The notes beneath the pieces were generated by a model. It saw nothing but the letters and a program-made list of their open reading frames with translations, did no database searches and was not told the DNA's origin. The translations under genes were made by a program, and so were the position numbers. A DNA stretch of 64,000 nucleotides from Candidatus Poribacteria bacterium (GTDB lineage Bacteria; Poribacteria; WGA-4E; PCPOR2b). Shown one piece after another: positions 852-10,047 of this stretch. Location of the stretch: contig OZ244587.1 in NCBI GenBank assembly GCA_965218095.1, forward strand, positions 672,001 to 736,000. Direction: 5' to 3'. Positions within the stretch are counted from its first letter, which is position 1; each line of letters begins with the position of its first letter.

Positions 852-961
852 TACACATACAGCTCGACGGAATAAATACTGCGATACAGGTTTGAATGTG
901 ACACTACCCAGTCGTTCCTGCATAGCGCGTGGGAACGAGAGAAAATTAGAGGTGAGACAAG

Positions 962-2077
962 ATGGCGAAACAACAACCAGAAGAAATGATGACGCTCAAA
1001 CGGGCTCTCACCGCACGGACTCAAGAAGGGTTTCTGTACGAAAAACTGCCCGACAAAGTAGATTGGGTGCACTGCTACGCATGTGGTCACAACTGCAAAA
1101 TCCCTCCGGGCAGAGACGGTATCTGTCACGTGCGGTTTAACGAAAGGGGCAAGCTCTATGTTCCGTGGGGCTATGTCGGTGCGTTGCAGCTCGATCCTAT
1201 TGAGAAGAAGCCGTTCTTCCACGCATTTCCCGGTGCCTTGGCGATGAGCTTCGGGATGTTAGGTTGCGATTATCACTGCTCTTACTGCCAGAATTGGATA
1301 ACCTCGCAGGCACTTCGCGACAGAAATGCAGGGGCACCGGTGAAAGATCTTTCACCGGAAGCATTTGTCTCGCTTGCGTGTCAACACAACGCCCAGATTG
1401 TCACGAGCACGTACAATGAGCCGCTGATTACGAGCGAATGGGCGATTGATATTTTCAAGGAGGCGAAAAAGCATGGGCTCGTCACATCCTATGTGTCCAA
1501 CGGAAATGCCACGCCCAAAGTCCTTGACGCCCTCGGTCCGTGGGTCGATCTGTACAAGGTGGACCTCAAGGGCTTCAACGACAAAAATTACCGCAAGCTC
1601 GGCGGCGTACTAAAGCACGTCCTCGACACAATTAAGATGTTGTCTGAACGCAATTTCTGGGTCGAGATTGTCACGCTTATCGTTCCTGGCTTCAACGACT
1701 CCGATGAAGAACTTAAAGACATCGCCAACTTCCTCGTGTCTATCTCACCGGATATCCCCTGGCATGTGACGGCCTTCCATCAAGACTATAAGATGACCGA
1801 GCCGGATAACACCGCTGTCTCCACGCTTATCCATGCGGCGGAAATCGGCTACAACGCCGGACTGCATTATGTGTACGCCGGCAACCGCCCCGGTTATGTC
1901 AGACGCTACGAAAACACCTACTGCCCAGGTTGCGGCGAACTCCTCATTGAACGATGGGGATTCAGGGTACTGAAGCACCGGGTGAAAGCTGGTAGCTGTC
2001 CGAAATGTAAAACGACAATCGCTGGCGTTTGGAGTGGAAAGGAATTAGAGACGATGCGAGCGATGAAAGAAAAATGA
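962..2077 (+). CDS. amrS: AmmeMemoRadiSam system radical SAM enzyme
   Basis: N-terminal CxxCxxxC...GICHVR, DPIEKKPFFH, radical SAM motif CDYHCSYCQNW, TYNEP and C-terminal CPGC/CPKC. Confidence 0.9.
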   Translation: MAKQQPEEMMTLKRALTARTQEGFLYEKLPDKVDWVHCYACGHNCKIPPGRDGICHVRFNERGKLYVPWGYVGALQLDPIEKKPFFHAFPGALAMSFGMLGCDYHCSYCQNWITSQALRDRNAGAPVKDLSPEAFVSLACQHNAQIVTSTYNEPLITSEWAIDIFKEAKKHGLVTSYVSNGNATPKVLDALGPWVDLYKVDLKGFNDKNYRKLGGVLKHVLDTIKMLSERNFWVEIVTLIVPGFNDSDEELKDIANFLVSISPDIPWHVTAFHQDYKMTEPDNTAVSTLIHAAEIGYNAGLHYVYAGNRPGYVRRYENTYCPGCGELLIERWGFRVLKHRVKAGSCPKCKTTIAGVWSGKELETMRAMKEK

Positions 2078-2553
2078 AATCTGTGGAGAAGTTAATGAGT
2101 TTCAAACGTCGTTTACTGATTCTGTCTTGCTCAGAACGTAAACACACTTCAAAAGAATTGCTACCAGCCATAGAACGATACAATGGGCCGGTATTTTTTC
2201 TGCTGCGCCGTTTTCTTCGTGATTGTCCAGATAAAGCGGAATCATTGGATGTGTACATTTTGTCTGCCGCTTACGGGCTAATTCCAGCAAGCCATCCAAT
2301 TGCTCCTTATGACCAAAAGATGATCAAATATCGGGCGTCTGAATTACAGCCACATGTTTTAGCGACTTTTGGTGGACTTATGCAGAACAATTATACGTCT
2401 CTCTGTCTAGTGATGGGGAAAGCCTACTTGGCTGCATTGGAAGGTTGGCGGGAATTGGTGCCAACGAATCTTGCATTGATGGTAGCGAAAGGGCCGATGG
2501 GAGTGAAACAGGCTCAATTGAAAAATTGGCTAGAGGAATTGACAACAAATTAG
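2074..2553 (+). CDS. DUF6884/YaaA-like protein
   Basis: ILSCSERK...PAIERYNGP...YILSAAYGLI...IAPYDQKM...MGKAY. The ATG at 2074 overlaps the amrS stop (ATGA). Confidence 0.7.
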   Translation: MKSVEKLMSFKRRLLILSCSERKHTSKELLPAIERYNGPVFFLLRRFLRDCPDKAESLDVYILSAAYGLIPASHPIAPYDQKMIKYRASELQPHVLATFGGLMQNNYTSLCLVMGKAYLAALEGWRELVPTNLALMVAKGPMGVKQAQLKNWLEELTTN

Positions 2554-2564
2554 GGAGATAACAT

Positions 2565-2921
2565 ATGCTCGTTGAAGTGCTTAAACTCGGAACCACCGAA
2601 GAAGGCAATATTCCACTAATCGTAGATCAAATCGAAATAGTAGAGATTGATACTTCGTCTGTTGAACCTGTGAATAAGCAAGTAGATAGTCCGATCACAA
2701 TCGCTGAATTGGCGGATTTGCTAACTCAGATTAAGCCTATTAAGCCGCTGGACTTAGAAGAGCTAGATACCTATCATGCGCGGGACATTGAAGTGTGGCG
2801 GGATGGCAATCTATTTCCAGAGAAGATTGATTTTCCTCACTATATTGGACTACATGTTCTGTTGAGAAGTATACTACAGAAGTATAGTACGGTTGACAAT
2901 CTGCAAATTCAAATCAGCTGA
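2565..2921 (+). CDS. Hypothetical acidic protein (118 aa)
   Basis: ORF with a GGGAG RBS and tight operon spacing. No motif recognised. Confidence 0.6.
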   Translation: MLVEVLKLGTTEEGNIPLIVDQIEIVEIDTSSVEPVNKQVDSPITIAELADLLTQIKPIKPLDLEELDTYHARDIEVWRDGNLFPEKIDFPHYIGLHVLLRSILQKYSTVDNLQIQIS

Positions 2922-2929
2922 GGTTTCTG

Positions 2930-4045
2930 ATGCCCATTTTTTCCCTTGATAAATTCAAGTGCTCGGCTTTTGGTAAGTTTGATGCGGGAACTTGGACCGT
3001 AGCATATCATGACCGAAGTCATCTACCAAGAGATACCTACGTCTCGCTTGGAACAATTGAAGTTGAAGAATATACACAAAAAGGAGATTCTTTCTTCTAC
3101 TTTTGCCCCAACTCTTGTCAGCAGATTAAGTGTTTTATTGCTGATGCTTGGTGTAAAGGCAACGTTACTGGGCAAAAAGACCCAAAAGATACCGCCAAGA
3201 TTATTCTCGATCAGCTAAGTGAATCCATGGTGAGGTTAGGTCTTGTTCAGCCTAATTTTGAAATAGACGCACAAAATTTCATTACCGAGCGCAAGTTTGC
3301 AATCGTTGTATTAGATACAAACGCACTACGTGACGGTGCGATTCGTCATCTAAAGGAACAACTCGACAATGTACAATTGTGGACGATTATTCCGACAGTT
3401 GCCCTGATGGAGATTGGTGAGCGAATCGCCTATATAACCAGTAAAGACAAAGAGGGATGTAAACGTCAAAACAGTAGACTCATCCGTTTTCGACCTCAAG
3501 TCACAATCGCGCCCCAAGAAGTGAAGTGGATTCAAGAAAACTTCCCGACGGAAACTTTGGAACTTGCCCCAGAATTATTACGAACCTTTAGAGGATATGA
3601 CACAAGAAGAGAAAGCGAACCTGACAGAGTTTCCATTAATGACCGGCTCATCTTAGAAGGTATCAAAGATTTGCGACGGCAACGCAGTCTCCTAGAAGGA
3701 ATCTATCTAATGTCGAACGACAAGGATGTATCGCGGTTAGCTAGACTTGAAGGAATTAACACAATCTATCCTGCGATACCTGATATTCACGGGCTTTGCG
3801 ATCGCATCTATTCCCTTCGATATTCACTTGAAGTGCGCACCTACATTTCGTGTTCAATCCATCGCTTTCTTTGGGACTTGACACATGTTTTCAGCCAAAT
3901 CAAAGTGCAATCTACATCAGGATCGCAAGAGGGACAAGAATTGAAACTTTCTTATTATTATCCTGCTAAGTTGGTGAATGCTTGGATTGATGATAAGTTG
4001 GAGGTGACAGACCTTGGATCCAATTCTACCACCGACACTATTTGA
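2930..4045 (+). CDS. PIN-domain protein with N- and C-terminal extensions
   Basis: VVLDTNAL...IPTVALMEI...NDRLILE...LMSNDKDVSRLARLEGI carries the conserved acidic residues of PIN nucleases. Confidence 0.75.
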   Translation: MPIFSLDKFKCSAFGKFDAGTWTVAYHDRSHLPRDTYVSLGTIEVEEYTQKGDSFFYFCPNSCQQIKCFIADAWCKGNVTGQKDPKDTAKIILDQLSESMVRLGLVQPNFEIDAQNFITERKFAIVVLDTNALRDGAIRHLKEQLDNVQLWTIIPTVALMEIGERIAYITSKDKEGCKRQNSRLIRFRPQVTIAPQEVKWIQENFPTETLELAPELLRTFRGYDTRRESEPDRVSINDRLILEGIKDLRRQRSLLEGIYLMSNDKDVSRLARLEGINTIYPAIPDIHGLCDRIYSLRYSLEVRTYISCSIHRFLWDLTHVFSQIKVQSTSGSQEGQELKLSYYYPAKLVNAWIDDKLEVTDLGSNSTTDTI

Positions 4046-4862
4046 TATACTGGATCTGTTAGCAAGTAGGTCCGGTCCCATTACGCTTGACACTTTGAAC
4101 AGAAAGCGGTGGGTTACAAGAAAGCGCTTTGCCGAAATTGGACGAGTATTAGAAGCATTTCGGGTCGCATGCCGTGAGCAAGAATCGCTCCTACCGGATA
4201 CTGATCTAAAAGCATTCATCACGTGTTGGGAAGCCGCGGATTTAGACGGTGTCAATGATTTCTTCCATCGCTATCGGCCCTACAAGACCTTTTTGAGTTT
4301 CTTAAGAACAGAACAATATATTTATGTACCTCCCAAGAATGATATTGAGGCACGTCGCAGACTTAGCATTCAATTAGAGAATAGTAAAACCGGACCTAAT
4401 ATTGTTGCAATTGACACCTTCAAGTGGTGGGGGTTGGCTGTTGGGCAGGTATATTACGTTTTAAGCGCCGGAGGGCAGGACATTTACTGGGCCGGTGAAA
4501 AACTAAGTCTTGATGTCTTTGAAGAAAGCCTGCTTCGCTGTTACGCGAAAATTCGCCCCCTGGATGGATTTGTAAATATTGGAAAACTTGCTGATAAGGT
4601 TTGTCGTGAACTGCATATTGGGTTTATTGAATTTGAACGCCTCTTTGTTCAGCTGTGTCGAAAACGCCACGGCCACTACCGATTATCAACTTCTCTCGTT
4701 CGTCCTCCAGCGAGTAAGTCTCTAGTTCAAACACTTTTGCCACGATCAGTTGCCAAAAAACTCGCTTTGCAGCAAGGGGGTCCCATTGAATGGACGGACA
4801 AACGGTTGATGGAAGATGGAATAATTATTGGTGGACGGAGTGTGAAAATGATCAAAATTTAG
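4014..4862 (+). CDS. Hypothetical protein, possible C-terminal winged-helix
   Basis: TTG start with a GGAGGTG RBS, overlapping the PIN gene by 32 nt. GFVNIGKLADKVCRELHIGFIEFERLF is HTH-like. Confidence 0.6.
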   Translation: MDPILPPTLFDILDLLASRSGPITLDTLNRKRWVTRKRFAEIGRVLEAFRVACREQESLLPDTDLKAFITCWEAADLDGVNDFFHRYRPYKTFLSFLRTEQYIYVPPKNDIEARRRLSIQLENSKTGPNIVAIDTFKWWGLAVGQVYYVLSAGGQDIYWAGEKLSLDVFEESLLRCYAKIRPLDGFVNIGKLADKVCRELHIGFIEFERLFVQLCRKRHGHYRLSTSLVRPPASKSLVQTLLPRSVAKKLALQQGGPIEWTDKRLMEDGIIIGGRSVKMIKI

Positions 4863-4877
4863 ACGGAGGAGATTACA

Positions 4878-6077
4878 ATGAGTGATTTCAAGGATGACCT
4901 GACCTTAGACGATTTGCGTAAGGAAATTGGCAAAGGACAGCCTAAAAACCCATATGTCAATTTTTTTCTGTTATCCAATCCTTTCCCTGATGTTGGTCAG
5001 TTTATTCCAAGCATCTGTGTTAATCAGGACGAGATTAAACGAGAATTTGTGCGAACCCTCCGGGAATTTTATCAGGACGAACAATCAAGACGGCTGATGA
5101 TTCTTGGCAGCACAGGGGCAGGCAAAACTAACTTGTTGAAATTCTTTAAGCAAGAGCTTGAAGAATGGCACCAACCTGCTCCAGGAAAGCAAGCAATCAC
5201 AGATCTATTTACAATCTTTGTTGATCAACCTCAAGGAGGATATTTTGAAGTACATCGCAAAATAATCAGCGAATTAGCTACTATGTTTTTTACACGATTC
5301 TTCGAGGCTGTGCAATGCGGCAAGGTTAGTCTGACCAAACTTCCTACTGAAATTTCCGGGATTAGTCCGGAATTAATTCGTATTTTAGACTCAATGGCTT
5401 CAAATGGCTCTCACCAACTCTCGCTATGGCCAGAACCGAGGTCCCTCCGAACATTGGAGGAATGGTTACAGGGCACCAAACTCTCCGCCGCAGAAAAAAA
5501 ACAACTCGGTGGTGTGAGTGTCGAAGTTGGAAAATCCTCTACGATTGCTATCAAATTTCTTGTGGACCTTGTCAAGATTTTCAGATATGCAGAGCTGTTC
5601 AGGGGATTGATCGTACTGTTTGACGAGTTTGAAAATATTCTGTCAGGGTTATCACTAACTCGTCAGGTTCAGTATGCCCAAGATTTGAGAAACTTGTTCG
5701 ATAGTCTCGCTGATAGTGTTGTATTTGTCATTGGCACAGCTCCGGTTTCAAGTAATCTACAGCGAATCTCGCCCGCTTTGTATCGCCGATTGGGCGAAGG
5801 TGTTCCAGTTGAACCTATTCAAGACGAGAAGGCTGCTTTAGCGTATGCCCGGGCGTATACTCAATTGGGTCGGGAGGCTTTTAAGAATGAGACAAAGTGT
5901 AAGATTGACCTGCCGGCAGATTGTCCTGATGTGGATCGCCCGTATTATCCACTCACGTGTGCTACAATTACAAACGTTTACCAAGAAATCAGGGATAGGT
6001 ATTCCGATGTTCTTCCCGGGGATCTTCTCCCGGAATTAAGCCGCAGGTTTTATCAGCGAGTGTATGAAGGAAATTAG
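4878..6077 (+). CDS. P-loop AAA+/STAND-like ATPase (BrxD/DUF2791-like)
   Basis: Walker A GSTGAGKT, Walker B LIVLFDEFE, Arg-finger-like PALYRRL, N-terminal NPF motif. Confidence 0.8.
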   Translation: MSDFKDDLTLDDLRKEIGKGQPKNPYVNFFLLSNPFPDVGQFIPSICVNQDEIKREFVRTLREFYQDEQSRRLMILGSTGAGKTNLLKFFKQELEEWHQPAPGKQAITDLFTIFVDQPQGGYFEVHRKIISELATMFFTRFFEAVQCGKVSLTKLPTEISGISPELIRILDSMASNGSHQLSLWPEPRSLRTLEEWLQGTKLSAAEKKQLGGVSVEVGKSSTIAIKFLVDLVKIFRYAELFRGLIVLFDEFENILSGLSLTRQVQYAQDLRNLFDSLADSVVFVIGTAPVSSNLQRISPALYRRLGEGVPVEPIQDEKAALAYARAYTQLGREAFKNETKCKIDLPADCPDVDRPYYPLTCATITNVYQEIRDRYSDVLPGDLLPELSRRFYQRVYEGN

Positions 6078-6079
6078 GC

Positions 6080-7261
6080 ATGTCATCTCGCACATTGACA
6101 ATCGGCGTATCGCAAGTCGAAACGCCGGCATTGTTTGCTAGCTATCGTATCCGTGATTACCCTCAGGCAGGTCTTCGCTGTCACCCTTGGAAAATCACAG
6201 ATACTCAAGCATTGCTGCTAAACGCTTTTGATCTACTAGCTAACAAACGTACCAAGATGTTTACAGACGAGATCCGAAAGACGAGAGGTAAGCTCCGCAA
6301 GTACGTCGAATTTGACGGTCCGCTGATGCTTGATTCGGGTGCTTTTAATTTCTTACAACACGAGGAGATTAGTATCACCTCACCTGACGTTCTAAAAATC
6401 GGAATTGAATTAGACGTTGATTTATCGGTTGTGTTAGACCACCCATTCTTACCCAAATCAACAGAAGATGAGATACGCACCCGTTGGTCAAATACACGAG
6501 ATAACACACGCACAATGGTTGAAAGGTTAGAACATTGGGAGGGCGATCTCCCCGACGGTTTCCAACTAATGCCTGTCCTCCATGGGCATGATGCAGAAAC
6601 ACTCAAGCGTTCCCTTGATGATATTATCACGATTCTTGGCCAGGATCCCGATATTGTGGGAATTGGAAGTTTAGCCCCGTTGGCTCGCAACGGCAATAAG
6701 CGCACCGTTATTGATGTCATACTCACTATCCGTCAACTGCTACCTAATGCTTATATTCACTGTTTTTCATTGGGTTCGGCACTGCTGATGTTATTGGCTT
6801 TTTACTGTGGAGCTGACACAGTAGATTCACAAACTTGGATTATAAGTGCCGCTTTCAAACAGGTACAATTGCCCGGACTTCACTTAACCCGACTTTCCCC
6901 ACGGGAAAAAGAAAAAGATCCAGTCAAATATGAACAGACTCGAAATGCCTTTGCCCAGCATCTGCTCCAACTCATTGAAAAAGAAGGATTTGCTGTGAAG
7001 AACTGGGACACCGGTAAGGAATGGAAAATTAACAGTGAAGACGATGCCTTGGCTTATATGGACGATCTTGAAGACCGTGATAAAATCAATCACATTCATC
7101 GTCGCGCCTGCCATAACTTGTATGCTTTCAATTTTGAGGCAGGACGAGTCCGTGAACACAAAAACGCTGGTACATTTGAGACGTTCATCCAGGATCGGAT
7201 GATGATCACTATTTATAGAAGAGTATTTGAATATGCTATAAACGAAAGGAATAAAACTTAA
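6080..7261 (+). CDS. Atypical tRNA-guanine transglycosylase (TGT/DpdA superfamily) protein
   Basis: VETP, PLMLDSGAF, VVLDHP, MPVLHG, VGIGSLAP, IHCFSLG, GADTVDS and HNL motifs in TGT order. The CxCxxC zinc motif is absent. Confidence 0.8.
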   Translation: MSSRTLTIGVSQVETPALFASYRIRDYPQAGLRCHPWKITDTQALLLNAFDLLANKRTKMFTDEIRKTRGKLRKYVEFDGPLMLDSGAFNFLQHEEISITSPDVLKIGIELDVDLSVVLDHPFLPKSTEDEIRTRWSNTRDNTRTMVERLEHWEGDLPDGFQLMPVLHGHDAETLKRSLDDIITILGQDPDIVGIGSLAPLARNGNKRTVIDVILTIRQLLPNAYIHCFSLGSALLMLLAFYCGADTVDSQTWIISAAFKQVQLPGLHLTRLSPREKEKDPVKYEQTRNAFAQHLLQLIEKEGFAVKNWDTGKEWKINSEDDALAYMDDLEDRDKINHIHRRACHNLYAFNFEAGRVREHKNAGTFETFIQDRMMITIYRRVFEYAINERNKT

Positions 7262-7319
7262 TGGAACATGCTCAACAACTGCTTACCGATAGGAATTCTT
7301 GATAAGAAGGAGTCTGCAG

Positions 7320-7832
7320 ATGGACTTACGTTTTCTTGAATCCGAGATTTGTCAATGGGCTGAAAAATACAAAATTCAACCTTATGAAGCCGAATTGATT
7401 GAGCTCAAATCCAAGGTGGAACAACGTGGCTACCTTGACAAAGAGGAGTTGTTCCGCGTCGCGCGTTGGAAGTCGCCAAGGCGTCCAGATCTCGTGAAAA
7501 AAAACAAAGACGACTACGTAAAAGAAATTACGGGGTGGGCATTTACCGCCACGAATGAACGTTCAAAAATAGAAGTTTTGACCCTGTTGGATGGCATCGG
7601 GGAGCCAACCGCTTCCGCAGTTCTTCATCTATTTCACAAAGATCCTTATCCAATCCTAGATTTTCGTGCGTTGTGGTCTGTGGGGTTGGAAGAATCTGAA
7701 CAATATTCGTTTTCATTCTGGTGGTGTTACGTGTGCTTTTGTCGAGACGTTGCATGTCGCAACCAAGTCGACATGCGAACCTTGGATTGGGCACTCTGGC
7801 AGTACTCAAAATGTAAACAACAAGGGGGTTAA
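7320..7832 (+). CDS. HhH-type DNA glycosylase-like protein
   Basis: HhH motif LTLLDGIGEPTASAVL, then YPILDFRA (catalytic-type Asp) and C-terminal RTLDWALW. AAGGAG RBS before ATG 7320. Confidence 0.65.
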   Translation: MDLRFLESEICQWAEKYKIQPYEAELIELKSKVEQRGYLDKEELFRVARWKSPRRPDLVKKNKDDYVKEITGWAFTATNERSKIEVLTLLDGIGEPTASAVLHLFHKDPYPILDFRALWSVGLEESEQYSFSFWWCYVCFCRDVACRNQVDMRTLDWALWQYSKCKQQGG

Positions 7833-7877
7833 TGGCTCTCCACCGGATCTCATCACGGAAAAATTGGAGTTGATGCA

Positions 7878-9137
7878 GTGATAACAAAGACCTTCCCAAA
7901 ACGAACACTCCTCGCAGCACTTTCGATTGCCTTGGCAGGCAGCTTTTTGCTGTGCGGCTACGAGTTTATTCGGGCGGTATCAACCTCTTTGTTCATTGAT
8001 GCGTACGGTGCTAAAAACTTGCCTCGGGTGATGGTAGCGGTGCCGCTTGGCGTCTTCTTACTGCTTTATCTCTACGGTAGGCTGCTGTCGTGGTTGGGTG
8101 CGAAACGTGCGTTATTGTTGACGTCAATTTTGTCTGCGGCCCTGATTGCAGGCTGCTACAATCTGATTATCATGGGCTATGCTATCGCGGTGGCAGTGGC
8201 CTATGTTTTCCGTGAAGCATATATTGTGTTAATTATCGAACAATATTGGTCGCTTATCAATAGCACATTAAATCCGAAGCAGGCGCGTTGGATTAATGGA
8301 CCTTTTTGCGCGGTTGCGACGATTGGCTCAGTTACCGGCGGTTCCCTTGTTGCGTACCTCGCTCCATCTTTGGGTTCTGAGGTGTTGCTGCTATTCGTAG
8401 CAGGTTCGCTACTGCCCGCGGCATTGTTTGCGATGTTCGCTTATGCTGCCGCCGGTGAGCCTCAACCCGCAGCCACAGAGCAAGGCGGACGACAGGGACA
8501 TACAGGGTTGAAGGTACTTGCACGTTCCCGCTATCTAATTTTCCTATTCCTGCTCATCCTGACGACACAGGTTGTTTCGACGGTATTAGACCTACGATTT
8601 AATGGATTGGTCGAAACTGCTATTGTTGACAAAGATATGCGAACCGCCTTCTATGGGCGATTTTATGGGCAGTGGCTTGGTATCTCTGCTTTTGTTCTGC
8701 AACTCTGTGCGGGTTTTGTGTTGCGATTCATACCAATTCGCATCCTACATCCGGGCATTCCGCTGGTTCATCTGATTGCGGGTGCGGTGCTGACTGTAGC
8801 ACCTTCCCTGAGGAGTGGTGCGACCGCATTTCTGCTTTTCAAGACATTGGACTATTCGCTTTTCCGAGCGGCAAAAGAGATGCTTTATATTCCTTTATCG
8901 TTCGATGCCCGCTATCGGGCGAAACAGGTCATTGATTCTTTCGGTTATCGATTTGCTAAAGGTGGTAGTGCCGGCGTGATTACCGTAATCGGCTTTGTTA
9001 TGGCAATTCCGGGTGCCGCATATTCTATTACCGCGATGGTGATGGCAATCCTCTGGTCAGGGATTGTGCCGAACTTGACAAAGCAGTACCAAAATCTGGG
9101 GACACGCAATGATGGGAGAGAAGATATAGATGAATAA
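7878..9137 (+). CDS. Npt1/Npt2 (TLC, ATP/ADP antiporter-like) MFS transporter
   Basis: Multiple TM helices and the signature KTLDYSLFRAAKEMLYIPL...RYRAKQVIDSFGYRFAK. Confidence 0.8.
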   Translation: MITKTFPKRTLLAALSIALAGSFLLCGYEFIRAVSTSLFIDAYGAKNLPRVMVAVPLGVFLLLYLYGRLLSWLGAKRALLLTSILSAALIAGCYNLIIMGYAIAVAVAYVFREAYIVLIIEQYWSLINSTLNPKQARWINGPFCAVATIGSVTGGSLVAYLAPSLGSEVLLLFVAGSLLPAALFAMFAYAAAGEPQPAATEQGGRQGHTGLKVLARSRYLIFLFLLILTTQVVSTVLDLRFNGLVETAIVDKDMRTAFYGRFYGQWLGISAFVLQLCAGFVLRFIPIRILHPGIPLVHLIAGAVLTVAPSLRSGATAFLLFKTLDYSLFRAAKEMLYIPLSFDARYRAKQVIDSFGYRFAKGGSAGVITVIGFVMAIPGAAYSITAMVMAILWSGIVPNLTKQYQNLGTRNDGREDIDE

Positions 9138-9222
9138 AGACGACGGGTTCATTCGTTCATTCCACTTGGAGTAAATGTCCCTCTGGGTCCATATTTGATG
9201 TTTCGCACTAAGGAGATTATTA

Positions 9223-10047
9223 ATGGCTATCGTTGATACACACGCACATATCTATTCCGAAGACACCGAAACGTATCCGCAAATGCCGGAACCCTACTTG
9301 CCACCGCCCGGTCGAGGAACAATCGAAGACCTGAAAAGCGAGGTCGAGGCAAACAATGTTGATCGCGTTATCGTGGTTCAGACCTTCACCGTTTACCAGC
9401 ATGATAACCGGCTCACGATTGATACCGTGCGGGAAAATCAAGAATGGACGACCGGTGTTTTGAACCTCGATCCCTTTGACGATGAGTCGATAAGTTTAAT
9501 GGAAACGGCGCGTGCGATAGGCGTCCGCGGAAATCGTGTCTCAGTGGGCTGGCCGACGGATGACTCTGTCCTTCCGGAACATCGACACCTATGGGAAGCG
9601 GCGCAACGGTTGGATGTGGTGCTCTGTGCTTTACTCAACCCACCCAACTGCCGCTCGCTAGCGAGTCTGCTTGAAGCGTTTCCCGATGTCCCCGTTGTTC
9701 TGGATCACTGTGCCAATTTGAGAGCCACTGATTTTCCGGATTCTGACAATCTGCAAACGGTTCTGGCTCTTGCACAACTCAAGAATCTATACGCCAAACT
9801 GTCATTTATCGTCACTGGATCTGAAGATGAATTTCCCTGCCGTGATATGTTCGAGATGGTCCGGCAGATCATCGGGGCTTACACGCCGGAAAGATGTATA
9901 TGGGGCAGCGACTTTCCGACATCGCTCTGGATTCCCAAGGTGACGTACCGGCAGCATCTCGCAATCTTTCAGGAACATTTGGGGTTATCCGAAGCGGAAA
10001 AAGCTGCTATCTTAGGCGAAACTGCGATGAAACTCTGGTTTTCCTAA
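9223..10047 (+). CDS. Amidohydrolase family protein
   Basis: IVDTHAH, VVLDHC, NLYAKLS and WGSDFP motifs. Confidence 0.85.
   Translation: MAIVDTHAHIYSEDTETYPQMPEPYLPPPGRGTIEDLKSEVEANNVDRVIVVQTFTVYQHDNRLTIDTVRENQEWTTGVLNLDPFDDESISLMETARAIGVRGNRVSVGWPTDDSVLPEHRHLWEAAQRLDVVLCALLNPPNCRSLASLLEAFPDVPVVLDHCANLRATDFPDSDNLQTVLALAQLKNLYAKLSFIVTGSEDEFPCRDMFEMVRQIIGAYTPERCIWGSDFPTSLWIPKVTYRQHLAIFQEHLGLSEAEKAAILGETAMKLWFS

Follow-up and report, generated by a model that had tools for sequence, protein, structure and literature searches.

A six-gene cassette built around a divergent TGT-fold enzyme in Candidatus Poribacteria, a candidate compact relative of the Dpd DNA modification-restriction system

Modification of DNA with 7-deazaguanines is known from phages and from one large bacterial system, Dpd. 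In Salmonella Montevideo, Dpd is described as consisting of DpdA, DpdB, and DpdC together with the restriction proteins DpdD to DpdK, and DpdA, an enzyme of the tRNA-guanine transglycosylase (TGT) fold, puts preQ0 into DNA only with ATP hydrolysis by DpdB, after which DpdC turns preQ0-DNA into ADG-DNA (PMC10164549). Both PMC11888242 and PMC12839542 place DpdC in DUF6884/DUF328. The subject of this report is a cassette of six genes, g1 to g6, found in a 64,000-nt stretch of DNA, here called the window, from a Candidatus Poribacteria bacterium (assembly GCA_965218095.1, contig OZ244587.1, positions 672,001 to 736,000, forward strand). The cassette is a horizontally acquired, mobile, and co-inherited unit built around a TGT paralogue, and we give roughly an even chance to the view that it is a compact Dpd-like defence system acting through 7-deazaguanine-based modification and restriction of DNA. 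An original prediction, made from the letters of the window alone, had put forward a new base-modification or anti-phage system at this place, and a candidate of that kind is still the best reading; PADLOC v2 gave no matching system and holds no model for g2 to g4, and no description of this gene set was found in the literature searched, although the supplementary tables of the surveys PMC11888242 and PMC12839542 might list related loci. The features of the locus, in window coordinates, are these.

2062..7237, no strand assigned: inserted block, delimited by blastn against a related genome that has 135 bp in its place
2074..2553, plus strand: g1, DUF6884 protein (YaaA/DpdC superfamily), predicted base-flipping DNA enzyme; the longest open reading frame (ORF) starts at the TTG at 2029
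2565..2921, plus strand: g2, 118-aa acidic protein belonging to no known family, predicted partner of the PIN protein
2930..4045, plus strand: g3, 371-aa PIN-domain nuclease with additional N- and C-terminal domains
4014..4862, plus strand: g4, 282-aa tandem winged-helix protein, predicted DNA binder, overlapping g3 by 32 nt
4878..6077, plus strand: g5, 399-aa AAA+ ATPase of the ORC/Cdc6-BrxD kind
6080..7261, plus strand: g6, 393-aa divergent TGT-fold base-exchange enzyme with no canonical zinc motif
7299/7320..7832, plus strand: g7, 170-aa protein, a neighbouring gene outside the cassette

The cassette resembles Dpd, as described in PMC10164549, in having a TGT-fold enzyme with the same three catalytic aspartates, a partner from the DUF6884/YaaA superfamily, an adjacent ATPase, and an island-like, patchy distribution; dependence on preQ0 synthesis by the host, as in Dpd, is proposed for it as well. 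The correspondence of g1 to DpdC holds at the superfamily level only. Unlike Dpd, which has a ParB/DndB-like (DGQHR) DpdB, the cassette has an AAA+ ATPase of the ORC/Cdc6-BrxD kind, and none of g1 to g7 matched DndB or ParB in Pfam, PADLOC, or NCBIfam. Its TGT is without the CxCxxC-H zinc site and falls below the DpdA models. Where Dpd has the DpdD to DpdK helicases and phospholipase D-type (PLD) nuclease, the cassette has the tandem winged helix of g4 and the PIN protein g3 with its small partner g2, and the whole comprises only six genes in 5.2 kb. Because the DpdA models do not match, the zinc site and DpdB are absent, and DpdD to DpdK are missing, we do not file the cassette as Dpd. The original prediction had gone further and held that the locus fits none of the known systems. 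This stands insofar as no PADLOC system matched, but it missed that DUF6884 belongs to the DpdC superfamily, which brings the cassette closer to Dpd than the statement suggests.

Other described systems share single elements with the cassette. Type IV CBASS, which is made up of a CD-NTase with QueC-like, TGT-like, and OGG-like proteins, also places a TGT paralogue in a defence context, but the cassette has no cyclase or QueC-like gene, and an OGG-like reading of g7 is unsupported and would concern a gene outside the cassette. BREX-related capture (BRC, HerA/GNAT/TGT) likewise joins a TGT to an ORC/Cdc6-type AAA+ protein in a proposed DNA-marking defence, and the paper describing it also proposes an NTPase standing in for DpdB (PMC12839542). 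According to its authors, BRC has PglZ, DUF6079, a STAND NTPase, DUF4007, and HerA and no DpdC homologue (PMC12839542), whereas the window cassette has none of these five and does have DUF6884. From BREX itself there is only a BrxD-like ATPase domain, with no PglZ, PglX, or BrxC in the window cassette. As in VapBC-type toxin-antitoxin pairs, the PIN nuclease is preceded by a small, translationally coupled protein that is predicted to bind it. In contrast to VapBC, g3 is 371 aa long with two extra domains, g2 has no recognizable antitoxin DNA-binding fold, and the g2-g3 pair was never found outside the cassette in the loci examined.

Seven co-oriented ORFs with short gaps and overlaps are present where the original prediction had placed them. 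All are on the plus strand, flanked by a radical-SAM gene and a transporter-like gene and spaced from a 32-nt overlap up to a 58-nt gap. The radical-SAM flank, amrS, encodes an AmmeMemoRadiSam enzyme (TIGR04337, 278.5 bits against a cut-off of 220), and its stop codon is overlapped by the ATG of g1 at 2074. The prediction had taken the seven as one unit at 2074 to 7832, but the conserved unit is the six genes g1 to g6, at about 2062 to 7261. In a genome of the same family (L044), the 3' part of amrS is followed by g7, the transporter gene, and an amidohydrolase gene without g1 to g6. By blastn, L044 1024-1282 corresponds to window 1803-2061 (87.6%) and L044 1418-3531 to window 7238-9324 (86.9%), with 135 bp between the aligned flanks. 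Since this related genome keeps amrS, g7, and the transporter gene without g1 to g6, the six genes are a 5.2-kb insertion and g7 is a resident neighbour; a deletion in the related genome is the less likely explanation. The L044 genome also lacks the part matching window 885-1802, so that amrS is reduced there to its last 88 codons.

The block had been judged AT-richer than amrS by eye, and its G+C content is indeed 0.41 to 0.46 across 2000-7750, against about 0.49 to 0.54 in both flanks. Scans with Pfam, PADLOC, and NCBIfam agree with the prediction that the block contains no QueC/D/E, cyclase, DGQHR/DndB protein, or helicase. A Pfam scan found no integrase or transposase inside the window cassette, no direct or inverted terminal repeats stand out at the ends of the block, and promoter-like and terminator-like sites in the cassette are no more frequent than in shuffled sequence.

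The cassette TGT has at least 399 relatives in the databases, the best 120 of which are 62 to 94% identical to it. With an alignment of 26 of these relatives, 35 loci were retrieved from species-representative genomes, and these loci were compared by tblastn with the window proteins and by all-against-all clustering of their ORFs. The DUF6884, PIN, g4, ATPase, and TGT families are all present in 26 of the 35, and in 22 the order DUF6884, small protein, PIN, winged helix, ATPase, TGT is kept on one strand. All five larger families are near full length in 18 loci. The TGT and DUF6884 occur together in 32; of the three loci without DUF6884, L005 is truncated where its contig stops, a transposase has overrun L020, and L024 simply lacks the gene. 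The record titles of the loci name Poribacteria, Latescibacterota, Chloroflexota (Anaerolineae/Chloroflexia), Acidobacteriota, Saccharibacteria, Planctomycetota, and Bacillota, that is, at least 6 phyla. Conservation of the neighbourhood of ATPase and TGT homologues had been proposed as a check, and it is borne out for g1 to g6 and not for g7, which stands beside the cassette in 0/35 loci.

Within the phylum of the window, a TGT of the cassette type (E ≤ 1e-50) is found in 18 of 176 genomes and 9 of 31 genera. A g4 profile matches in 20 of the 176, and 17 genomes hold both; in one (G031) the TGT is present without g4. Conversely, g4 lies away from an intact TGT at four places (G030, G067, G146, and a second site in G097). 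The G030, G067, and second G097 sites were examined, and all three are decayed cassettes with TGT remnants or a truncated ATPase; no functional g2-g5 block without a TGT was found among them. A pattern scan of IMG/VR viral contigs found no relative, 50,697 phage records gave no match, and plasmids yielded a single partial match of 30% only. No fused forms were found among proteins of 689 to 2000 aa, which is weak evidence.

The surroundings of the cassette are varied. By hand tally, a restriction-modification or defence-type domain lies no more than two ORFs from the cassette in 19 of the 35 loci (the domains counted were DNA methylases, type ISP, type I, and MmeI-like enzymes, DUF1156, DndB-like proteins, PAPS-reductase with HNH, HerA, SNF2, AAA_15/21, Cas6, and HTH-M78). 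DndB-family neighbours are present in only three loci (L010, L016, and L033). By the same tally, 10 of the 35 have a transposase, integrase, or resolvase, and in L007 and L028 the PIN gene is split by an insertion sequence. A gene for a YhhQ-type (Vut_1) transporter adjoins the cassette in L008 and L013, and L029 has a BLAST relative of it. The YhhQ family imports queuosine precursors.

The original prediction had called g7 helix-hairpin-helix (HhH) glycosylase-like, the only one of its domain calls without support from any tool; its DUF6884/YaaA-like, PIN, P-loop ATPase, and TGT calls were all confirmed by Pfam above cut-off. An HhH-like GIG hairpin is visible by eye in g7, and the sole hint of a glycosylase is an Atlas cluster that carries OGG on 10% of its members (score 0.90). 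No Pfam family matched g7 even at E ≤ 10, PADLOC and NCBIfam gave no match, sequence and profile comparisons with solved structures stayed at chance level, and Pfam OGG (PF21790) had no match in the genome at E ≤ 10. Identity as an HhH/OGG glycosylase is thus unsupported by Pfam, PADLOC, NCBIfam, or structure-profile searches, and membership of the cassette is ruled out by the 35 loci and by the persistence of g7 at the empty site of the related genome. With it falls the proposed step in which a glycosylase excises bases, since g7 lies outside the system and has no support as a glycosylase. The g7 family is large (proteins of about 169 aa, 1132 matches) and is found in 72 of the 176 genomes of the phylum, with up to 7 matches per genome, some of them with internal stops. 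Its members adjoin unrelated, varied, and mostly metabolic genes.

The TGT domain of g6 is recognized by PF01702 (1.1e-17, 64.6 bits against a cut-off of 26.3), and its closest solved relative is the Pyrococcus ArcTGT 1iq8 (E 4.4e-14). Residues D85, D120, and D249 align with the DSG, LDIP, and FDS motifs of 1iq8 and are invariant in 26/26 aligned TGTs. They correspond to the active-site aspartates conserved in DpdA and TGT enzymes, which are D95, D130, and D256 in S. Montevideo DpdA (PMC10164549). g6 has neither a PUA domain nor C-terminal tRNA-binding domains, and it scores far below the curated cut-offs for TgtA (TIGR00432, 72.2 vs 350) and bacterial Tgt (TIGR00430, 15.6 vs 306.75). A canonical Tgt is encoded elsewhere in the window genome (537.5 bits). 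Against PADLOC models, g6 reached 16.7 bits for DpdA and a weak 18.3 bits (E 2.6e-4) for the CBASS TGT.

The partner g1 matches DUF6884 (PF21818, 5.7e-10, 39.9 bits against a cut-off of 30), with a weak likeness to YaaA (2.9e-6), and in PADLOC it is matched by PDC-M57A (2.5e-9). The CxxxK and LSAxxG motifs of DUF6884 are defined in PMC11701544, where the family is described as YaaA-like and modelled flipping a base out of a duplex. Across the 24 aligned DUF6884 partners, CxxxK keeps its Cys and Lys and LSAxxG its Ser-Ala without exception, and the Gly of LSAxxG is conserved to 90% or more. Seven of the 24 (L008, L013, L028 to L031, and L061) have a further conserved domain of about 90 aa at the C-terminus, which the window g1 does not have. 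The ATPase g5 matches BrxC_BrxD (2.8e-7, 30.2 bits against a cut-off of 22.2) and is ORC-CDC6-like (9.2e-6), with a weak likeness to TniB (25.7 bits) and 24.9 bits against a cut-off of 350 for NCBIfam BrxD. Its Walker A (G77, G82, K83, T84) and Walker B (D249, E250) residues are invariant in 25/25. Among these 25 ATPases, the PADLOC BrxD model matches 22 and mad8 matches 14.

The PIN domain of g3 is matched by PIN_4 (4.1e-5, 24.3 bits against a cut-off of 21.9), and D129, E161, D238, and D264 are invariant in 23/23. Its AlphaFold2 (AF2) model has a pLDDT of 85.1 and is matched by Foldseek, at a probability of 1.00, to PIN folds that include 3i8o (1.3e-4), the archaeal Holliday-junction ATPase 5f4h, SMG6, Nmd4, and VapC. 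The 118-aa and 282-aa proteins had been listed as unknowns, and neither g2 nor g4 has a match in Pfam, NCBIfam, PADLOC, or PHROGs. Compared with solved structures by sequence, g3 and g4 gave nothing meaningful. The AF2 model of g4 (pLDDT 91.7) consists of repeated helix-helix-helix-strand-strand units that VIA-align places closest to MarR/HxlR winged helices (Z 7.9 to 7.5), with the FokI recognition domain at Z 6.8 over 156 residues, while Foldseek returned nothing at E ≤ 1e-3. On the basis of this model, we regard g4 with moderate confidence as a tandem winged-helix protein. The only pointer from g4 to DpdG is an Atlas lead at 0.81, which gained no support from a scan of the whole PADLOC library, any DpdG models in it included: no model matched more than one of 26 g4 proteins.

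For g2 and g3, a model of the complex reached an ipSAE of 0.77, compared with 0.00 for the best of three controls, with at least 97% of contacts shared among three runs and a partner pLDDT of at least 78. In a benchmark, 58 of 80 solved complexes came up to this mark, as did 2 of 110 mismatched pairs, a calibration that is rough here as own alignments were used. In the predicted complex, g2 docks mostly against the C-terminal β domain of g3. Binding of the two proteins is supported by the model but not shown by it. Homologues of g2 are present in 5/35 loci, and the other variant of the cassette, introduced below, has a protein of about 145 aa at this position with a weak C-terminal likeness (hhalign E 0.014). 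Homology between the two small proteins was not borne out, the hhalign probability being 3%.

Taken together, the cassette enzymes look active, because the TGT aspartates, the Walker A and B motifs, and the PIN tetrad are invariant and CxxxK and LSAxxG are conserved. Before any tree was built, two types of locus were set from tblastn identities: a window type (the window, L006, L015, L016, L019, L026, and L030), in which g3 to g5 are 48 to 66% identical to those of the window, and another type, in which they are 27 to 38% identical. TGT identity does not track this split. In maximum-likelihood trees the window type forms one clade for PIN, g4, and ATPase (SH-aLRT 100), as is expected from the way in which the group was defined. 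For the TGT (AU p 6e-5) and for DUF6884 (AU p 6.5e-6) the data reject this clade, and the TGT tree largely tracks the host phyla given in the record titles. From these rejections it follows that g2 to g5 have been swapped as a unit while the TGT and DUF6884 kept their own history. As a restraint on this argument, only the TGT and DUF6884 rejections are informative, since the groups were drawn from g3-g5 identity in the first place. The pattern fits conserved modification enzymes paired with a swappable block for recognition and effector functions. In one decayed cassette (L064, in G030), a g4 of the window type (59% to the window) stands with an ATPase of the other type (68% to that of L009), which shows that recombination has occurred inside the middle block too.

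The TGT and DUF6884 genes also occur with other partners. In six loci they stand alone as a minimal pair, with neighbours that are either a 600-aa protein without assignment together with HerA or an SNF2 helicase together with an MmeI-like enzyme. The window genome holds a second, different set at C1:3,554,500-3,559,700 (L061 5560-10626, minus strand), which consists of DUF6884 (256 aa), NurA-like (493 aa), HerA (573 aa), and TGT-like (344 aa) proteins. This set interrupts a glutamate-synthase operon, with the GXGXG gene on one side of it and the Glu_synthase gene on the other. In all, the genome has four TGT paralogues besides the canonical Tgt. Two further non-canonical ones come with an ArcS-like DUF5591, at C1:287,700-291,400 (L062) and C1:1,273,050-1,274,920 (L063). 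A DUF5591-bearing paralogue of 635 aa adjoins a MutH/Sau3AI-like endonuclease and an N6_N4 DNA methylase, and the other, of 448 aa with a separate 162-aa DUF5591 protein, adjoins insertion-sequence transposases.

How these parts might work together can be drawn by analogy with Dpd, to which the cassette is linked because the TGT and DUF6884 form a pair in 32/35 loci that recurs in the second TGT system of the same genome. On this model, g6 would exchange guanine in the host's own DNA for preQ0 made by the host QueC pathway, and the window genome does encode a bona fide QueC (211.5 bits against a cut-off of 150). The AAA+ protein g5 would supply an ATP-dependent step, as DpdB does for DpdA, and g1 would then process the inserted base. 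The tandem winged helix of g4 would give DNA recognition, and the g2-g3 PIN complex may be the nuclease that attacks nucleic acid without the mark. The original prediction had the ATPase gate the PIN toxin; we judge it at least as likely that the ATPase would power the TGT, since the DpdB ATPase is needed for the insertion of preQ0 by DpdA (PMC10164549). That DNA is the substrate is suggested by partners that are DNA-centred, namely the winged helix of g4 and the HerA/NurA-like or SNF2/MmeI-like proteins that stand beside the minimal pair, and a defence role by the restriction-modification, defence-type, and mobile-element genes near many of the 35 loci.

A number of observations weigh against this Dpd-like reading. 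PIN domains are mostly RNases, and the effector may therefore act on RNA. By sequence g6 is nearer to archaeal tRNA TGT than to DpdA, and it fails the DpdA models of NCBIfam (NF041059, 23.1 bits vs 200) and Pfam (PF23859, 18.4 vs 27). The zinc site CXCX2CX22H is said to be conserved in the DpdA family and TGTs (PMC10164549), but CxCxxC occurs in 0/26 aligned cassette TGTs, where conservation is limited to the His (H345) and a single Cys close to it. PADLOC found neither DpdB nor DpdD to DpdK in the cassette; its DpdC model matches g1 only weakly (6.2e-4 over about 50 residues), its DpdH model matches only 3/25 g5-family ATPases (best E 8.8e-4), and none of its models matches more than one of the 26 g4 proteins. 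The genes queC/D/E are not within the cassette, and the window genome has no YhhQ. Finally, many copies of the cassette are decayed, which fits defence but proves nothing.

It is possible, although improbable, that the cassette works by abortive infection and that the target of the TGT is a protein, or its product a small molecule, with g6 keeping the PIN effector or a licensing ATPase primed or repressed until infection releases it, much as the TGT-like enzyme of type IV CBASS puts a deazaguanine on the N-terminus of the cyclase. Enzymes of the TGT fold that have a protein as substrate, or for which a part in effector regulation is proposed, have been described (preprint 10.64898/2026.10.19.760177), and the weak PADLOC match of g6 to the CBASS TGT and the predicted tight binding of a small partner to the PIN protein would agree with such a scheme. 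However, the cassette has no QueC-like partner, cyclase, or other known target, and its partners (DUF6884, winged helix, ORC-like ATPase, HerA, NurA, and SNF2) are without exception of kinds that suggest DNA. The exchange of the PIN module while the TGT and DUF6884 stay also speaks against a co-evolving pair of enzyme and substrate. A little less probable again is an RNA-directed system, in which g6 would be a transglycosylase for tRNA or another RNA and the PIN RNase would cut host or phage tRNA or mRNA depending on how that RNA is modified. The nearness of g6 to archaeal tRNA TGT and the presence of the RNases SMG6, Nmd4, and VapC among the Foldseek relatives of g3 speak for it, but g6 lacks the PUA and C-terminal tRNA-binding domains and lies far under the TgtA and Tgt cut-offs, a canonical Tgt is already in the genome, the PIN matches include the Holliday-junction ATPase 5f4h, and DUF6884 is modelled as a DNA base-flipper (PMC11701544).

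Two further explanations are both considered very unlikely. The TGT and DUF6884 might recognize 7-deazaguanines or lesions in foreign DNA so that the PIN complex cuts it, similar to type IV restriction, and sensing was an option that the original prediction had offered. In its favour, YfjM, a member of DUF6884, is reported to be one of the proteins that bind abasic and RNA-base lesions (cited in PMC11701544). The precursor importer YhhQ beside some cassettes instead fits a need for substrate, and g6 retains its catalytic residues just as enzymes that insert the base do. Insertion of 7-deazaguanines by TGT enzymes is effectively irreversible, so that excision would be chemically unfavourable. 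Least likely of all, if only slightly, is a DNA repair or housekeeping module without a role in conflict. Links to oxidative stress and to the binding of lesions are on record for YaaA and DUF6884 (PMC11701544), and some neighbours of the cassette are housekeeping genes, but its spread is patchy at 18/176 genomes and 9/31 genera, an occupied and an empty site exist as a pair, the neighbours are variable and often restriction-modification genes or transposases, copies are often decayed, and the middle module is swapped.

If the Dpd-like reading is carried further, the cassette may represent an undescribed family of DNA hypermodification-restriction systems, a broader claim that we hold tentatively and at somewhat less than even confidence. 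Such a family would be characterized by a TGT clade without zinc, a BrxD/ORC-like AAA+ protein in place of the ParB-like DpdB, and a 7-deazaguanine in host DNA, possibly a derivative made by DUF6884 that is unlike dADG. Recognition and restriction would be carried by the swappable four-gene block of small protein, PIN, tandem winged helix, and AAA+ ATPase, and the TGT-DUF6884 pair would plug into other executioners such as NurA-HerA or SNF2 with an MmeI-like enzyme. Were this true, the writer chemistry of Dpd would have been reused with a different motor and nuclease as a modular and widely traded self-mark in at least 6, mostly uncultured, phyla, and the TGT-DUF6884 pair would amount to a general modification cartridge for defence systems. 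It would also offer a natural example of a recognition/effector block exchanged between conserved modification genes, a function for DUF6884, a defence family absent from PADLOC v2, and a small, expressible system in which to ask why TGT-type insertion into DNA needs ATP.

Upstream of the cassette, five loci with Poribacteria in their record titles (L014, L016, L018, L027, and L034) carry a recurrent set made up of a protein of about 900 aa (ORF cluster c23), a PAPS-reductase-domain protein, an HNH_2 protein, and sometimes a DndB-like protein. This set looks like a separate DNA-modification system that shares the island with the cassette.

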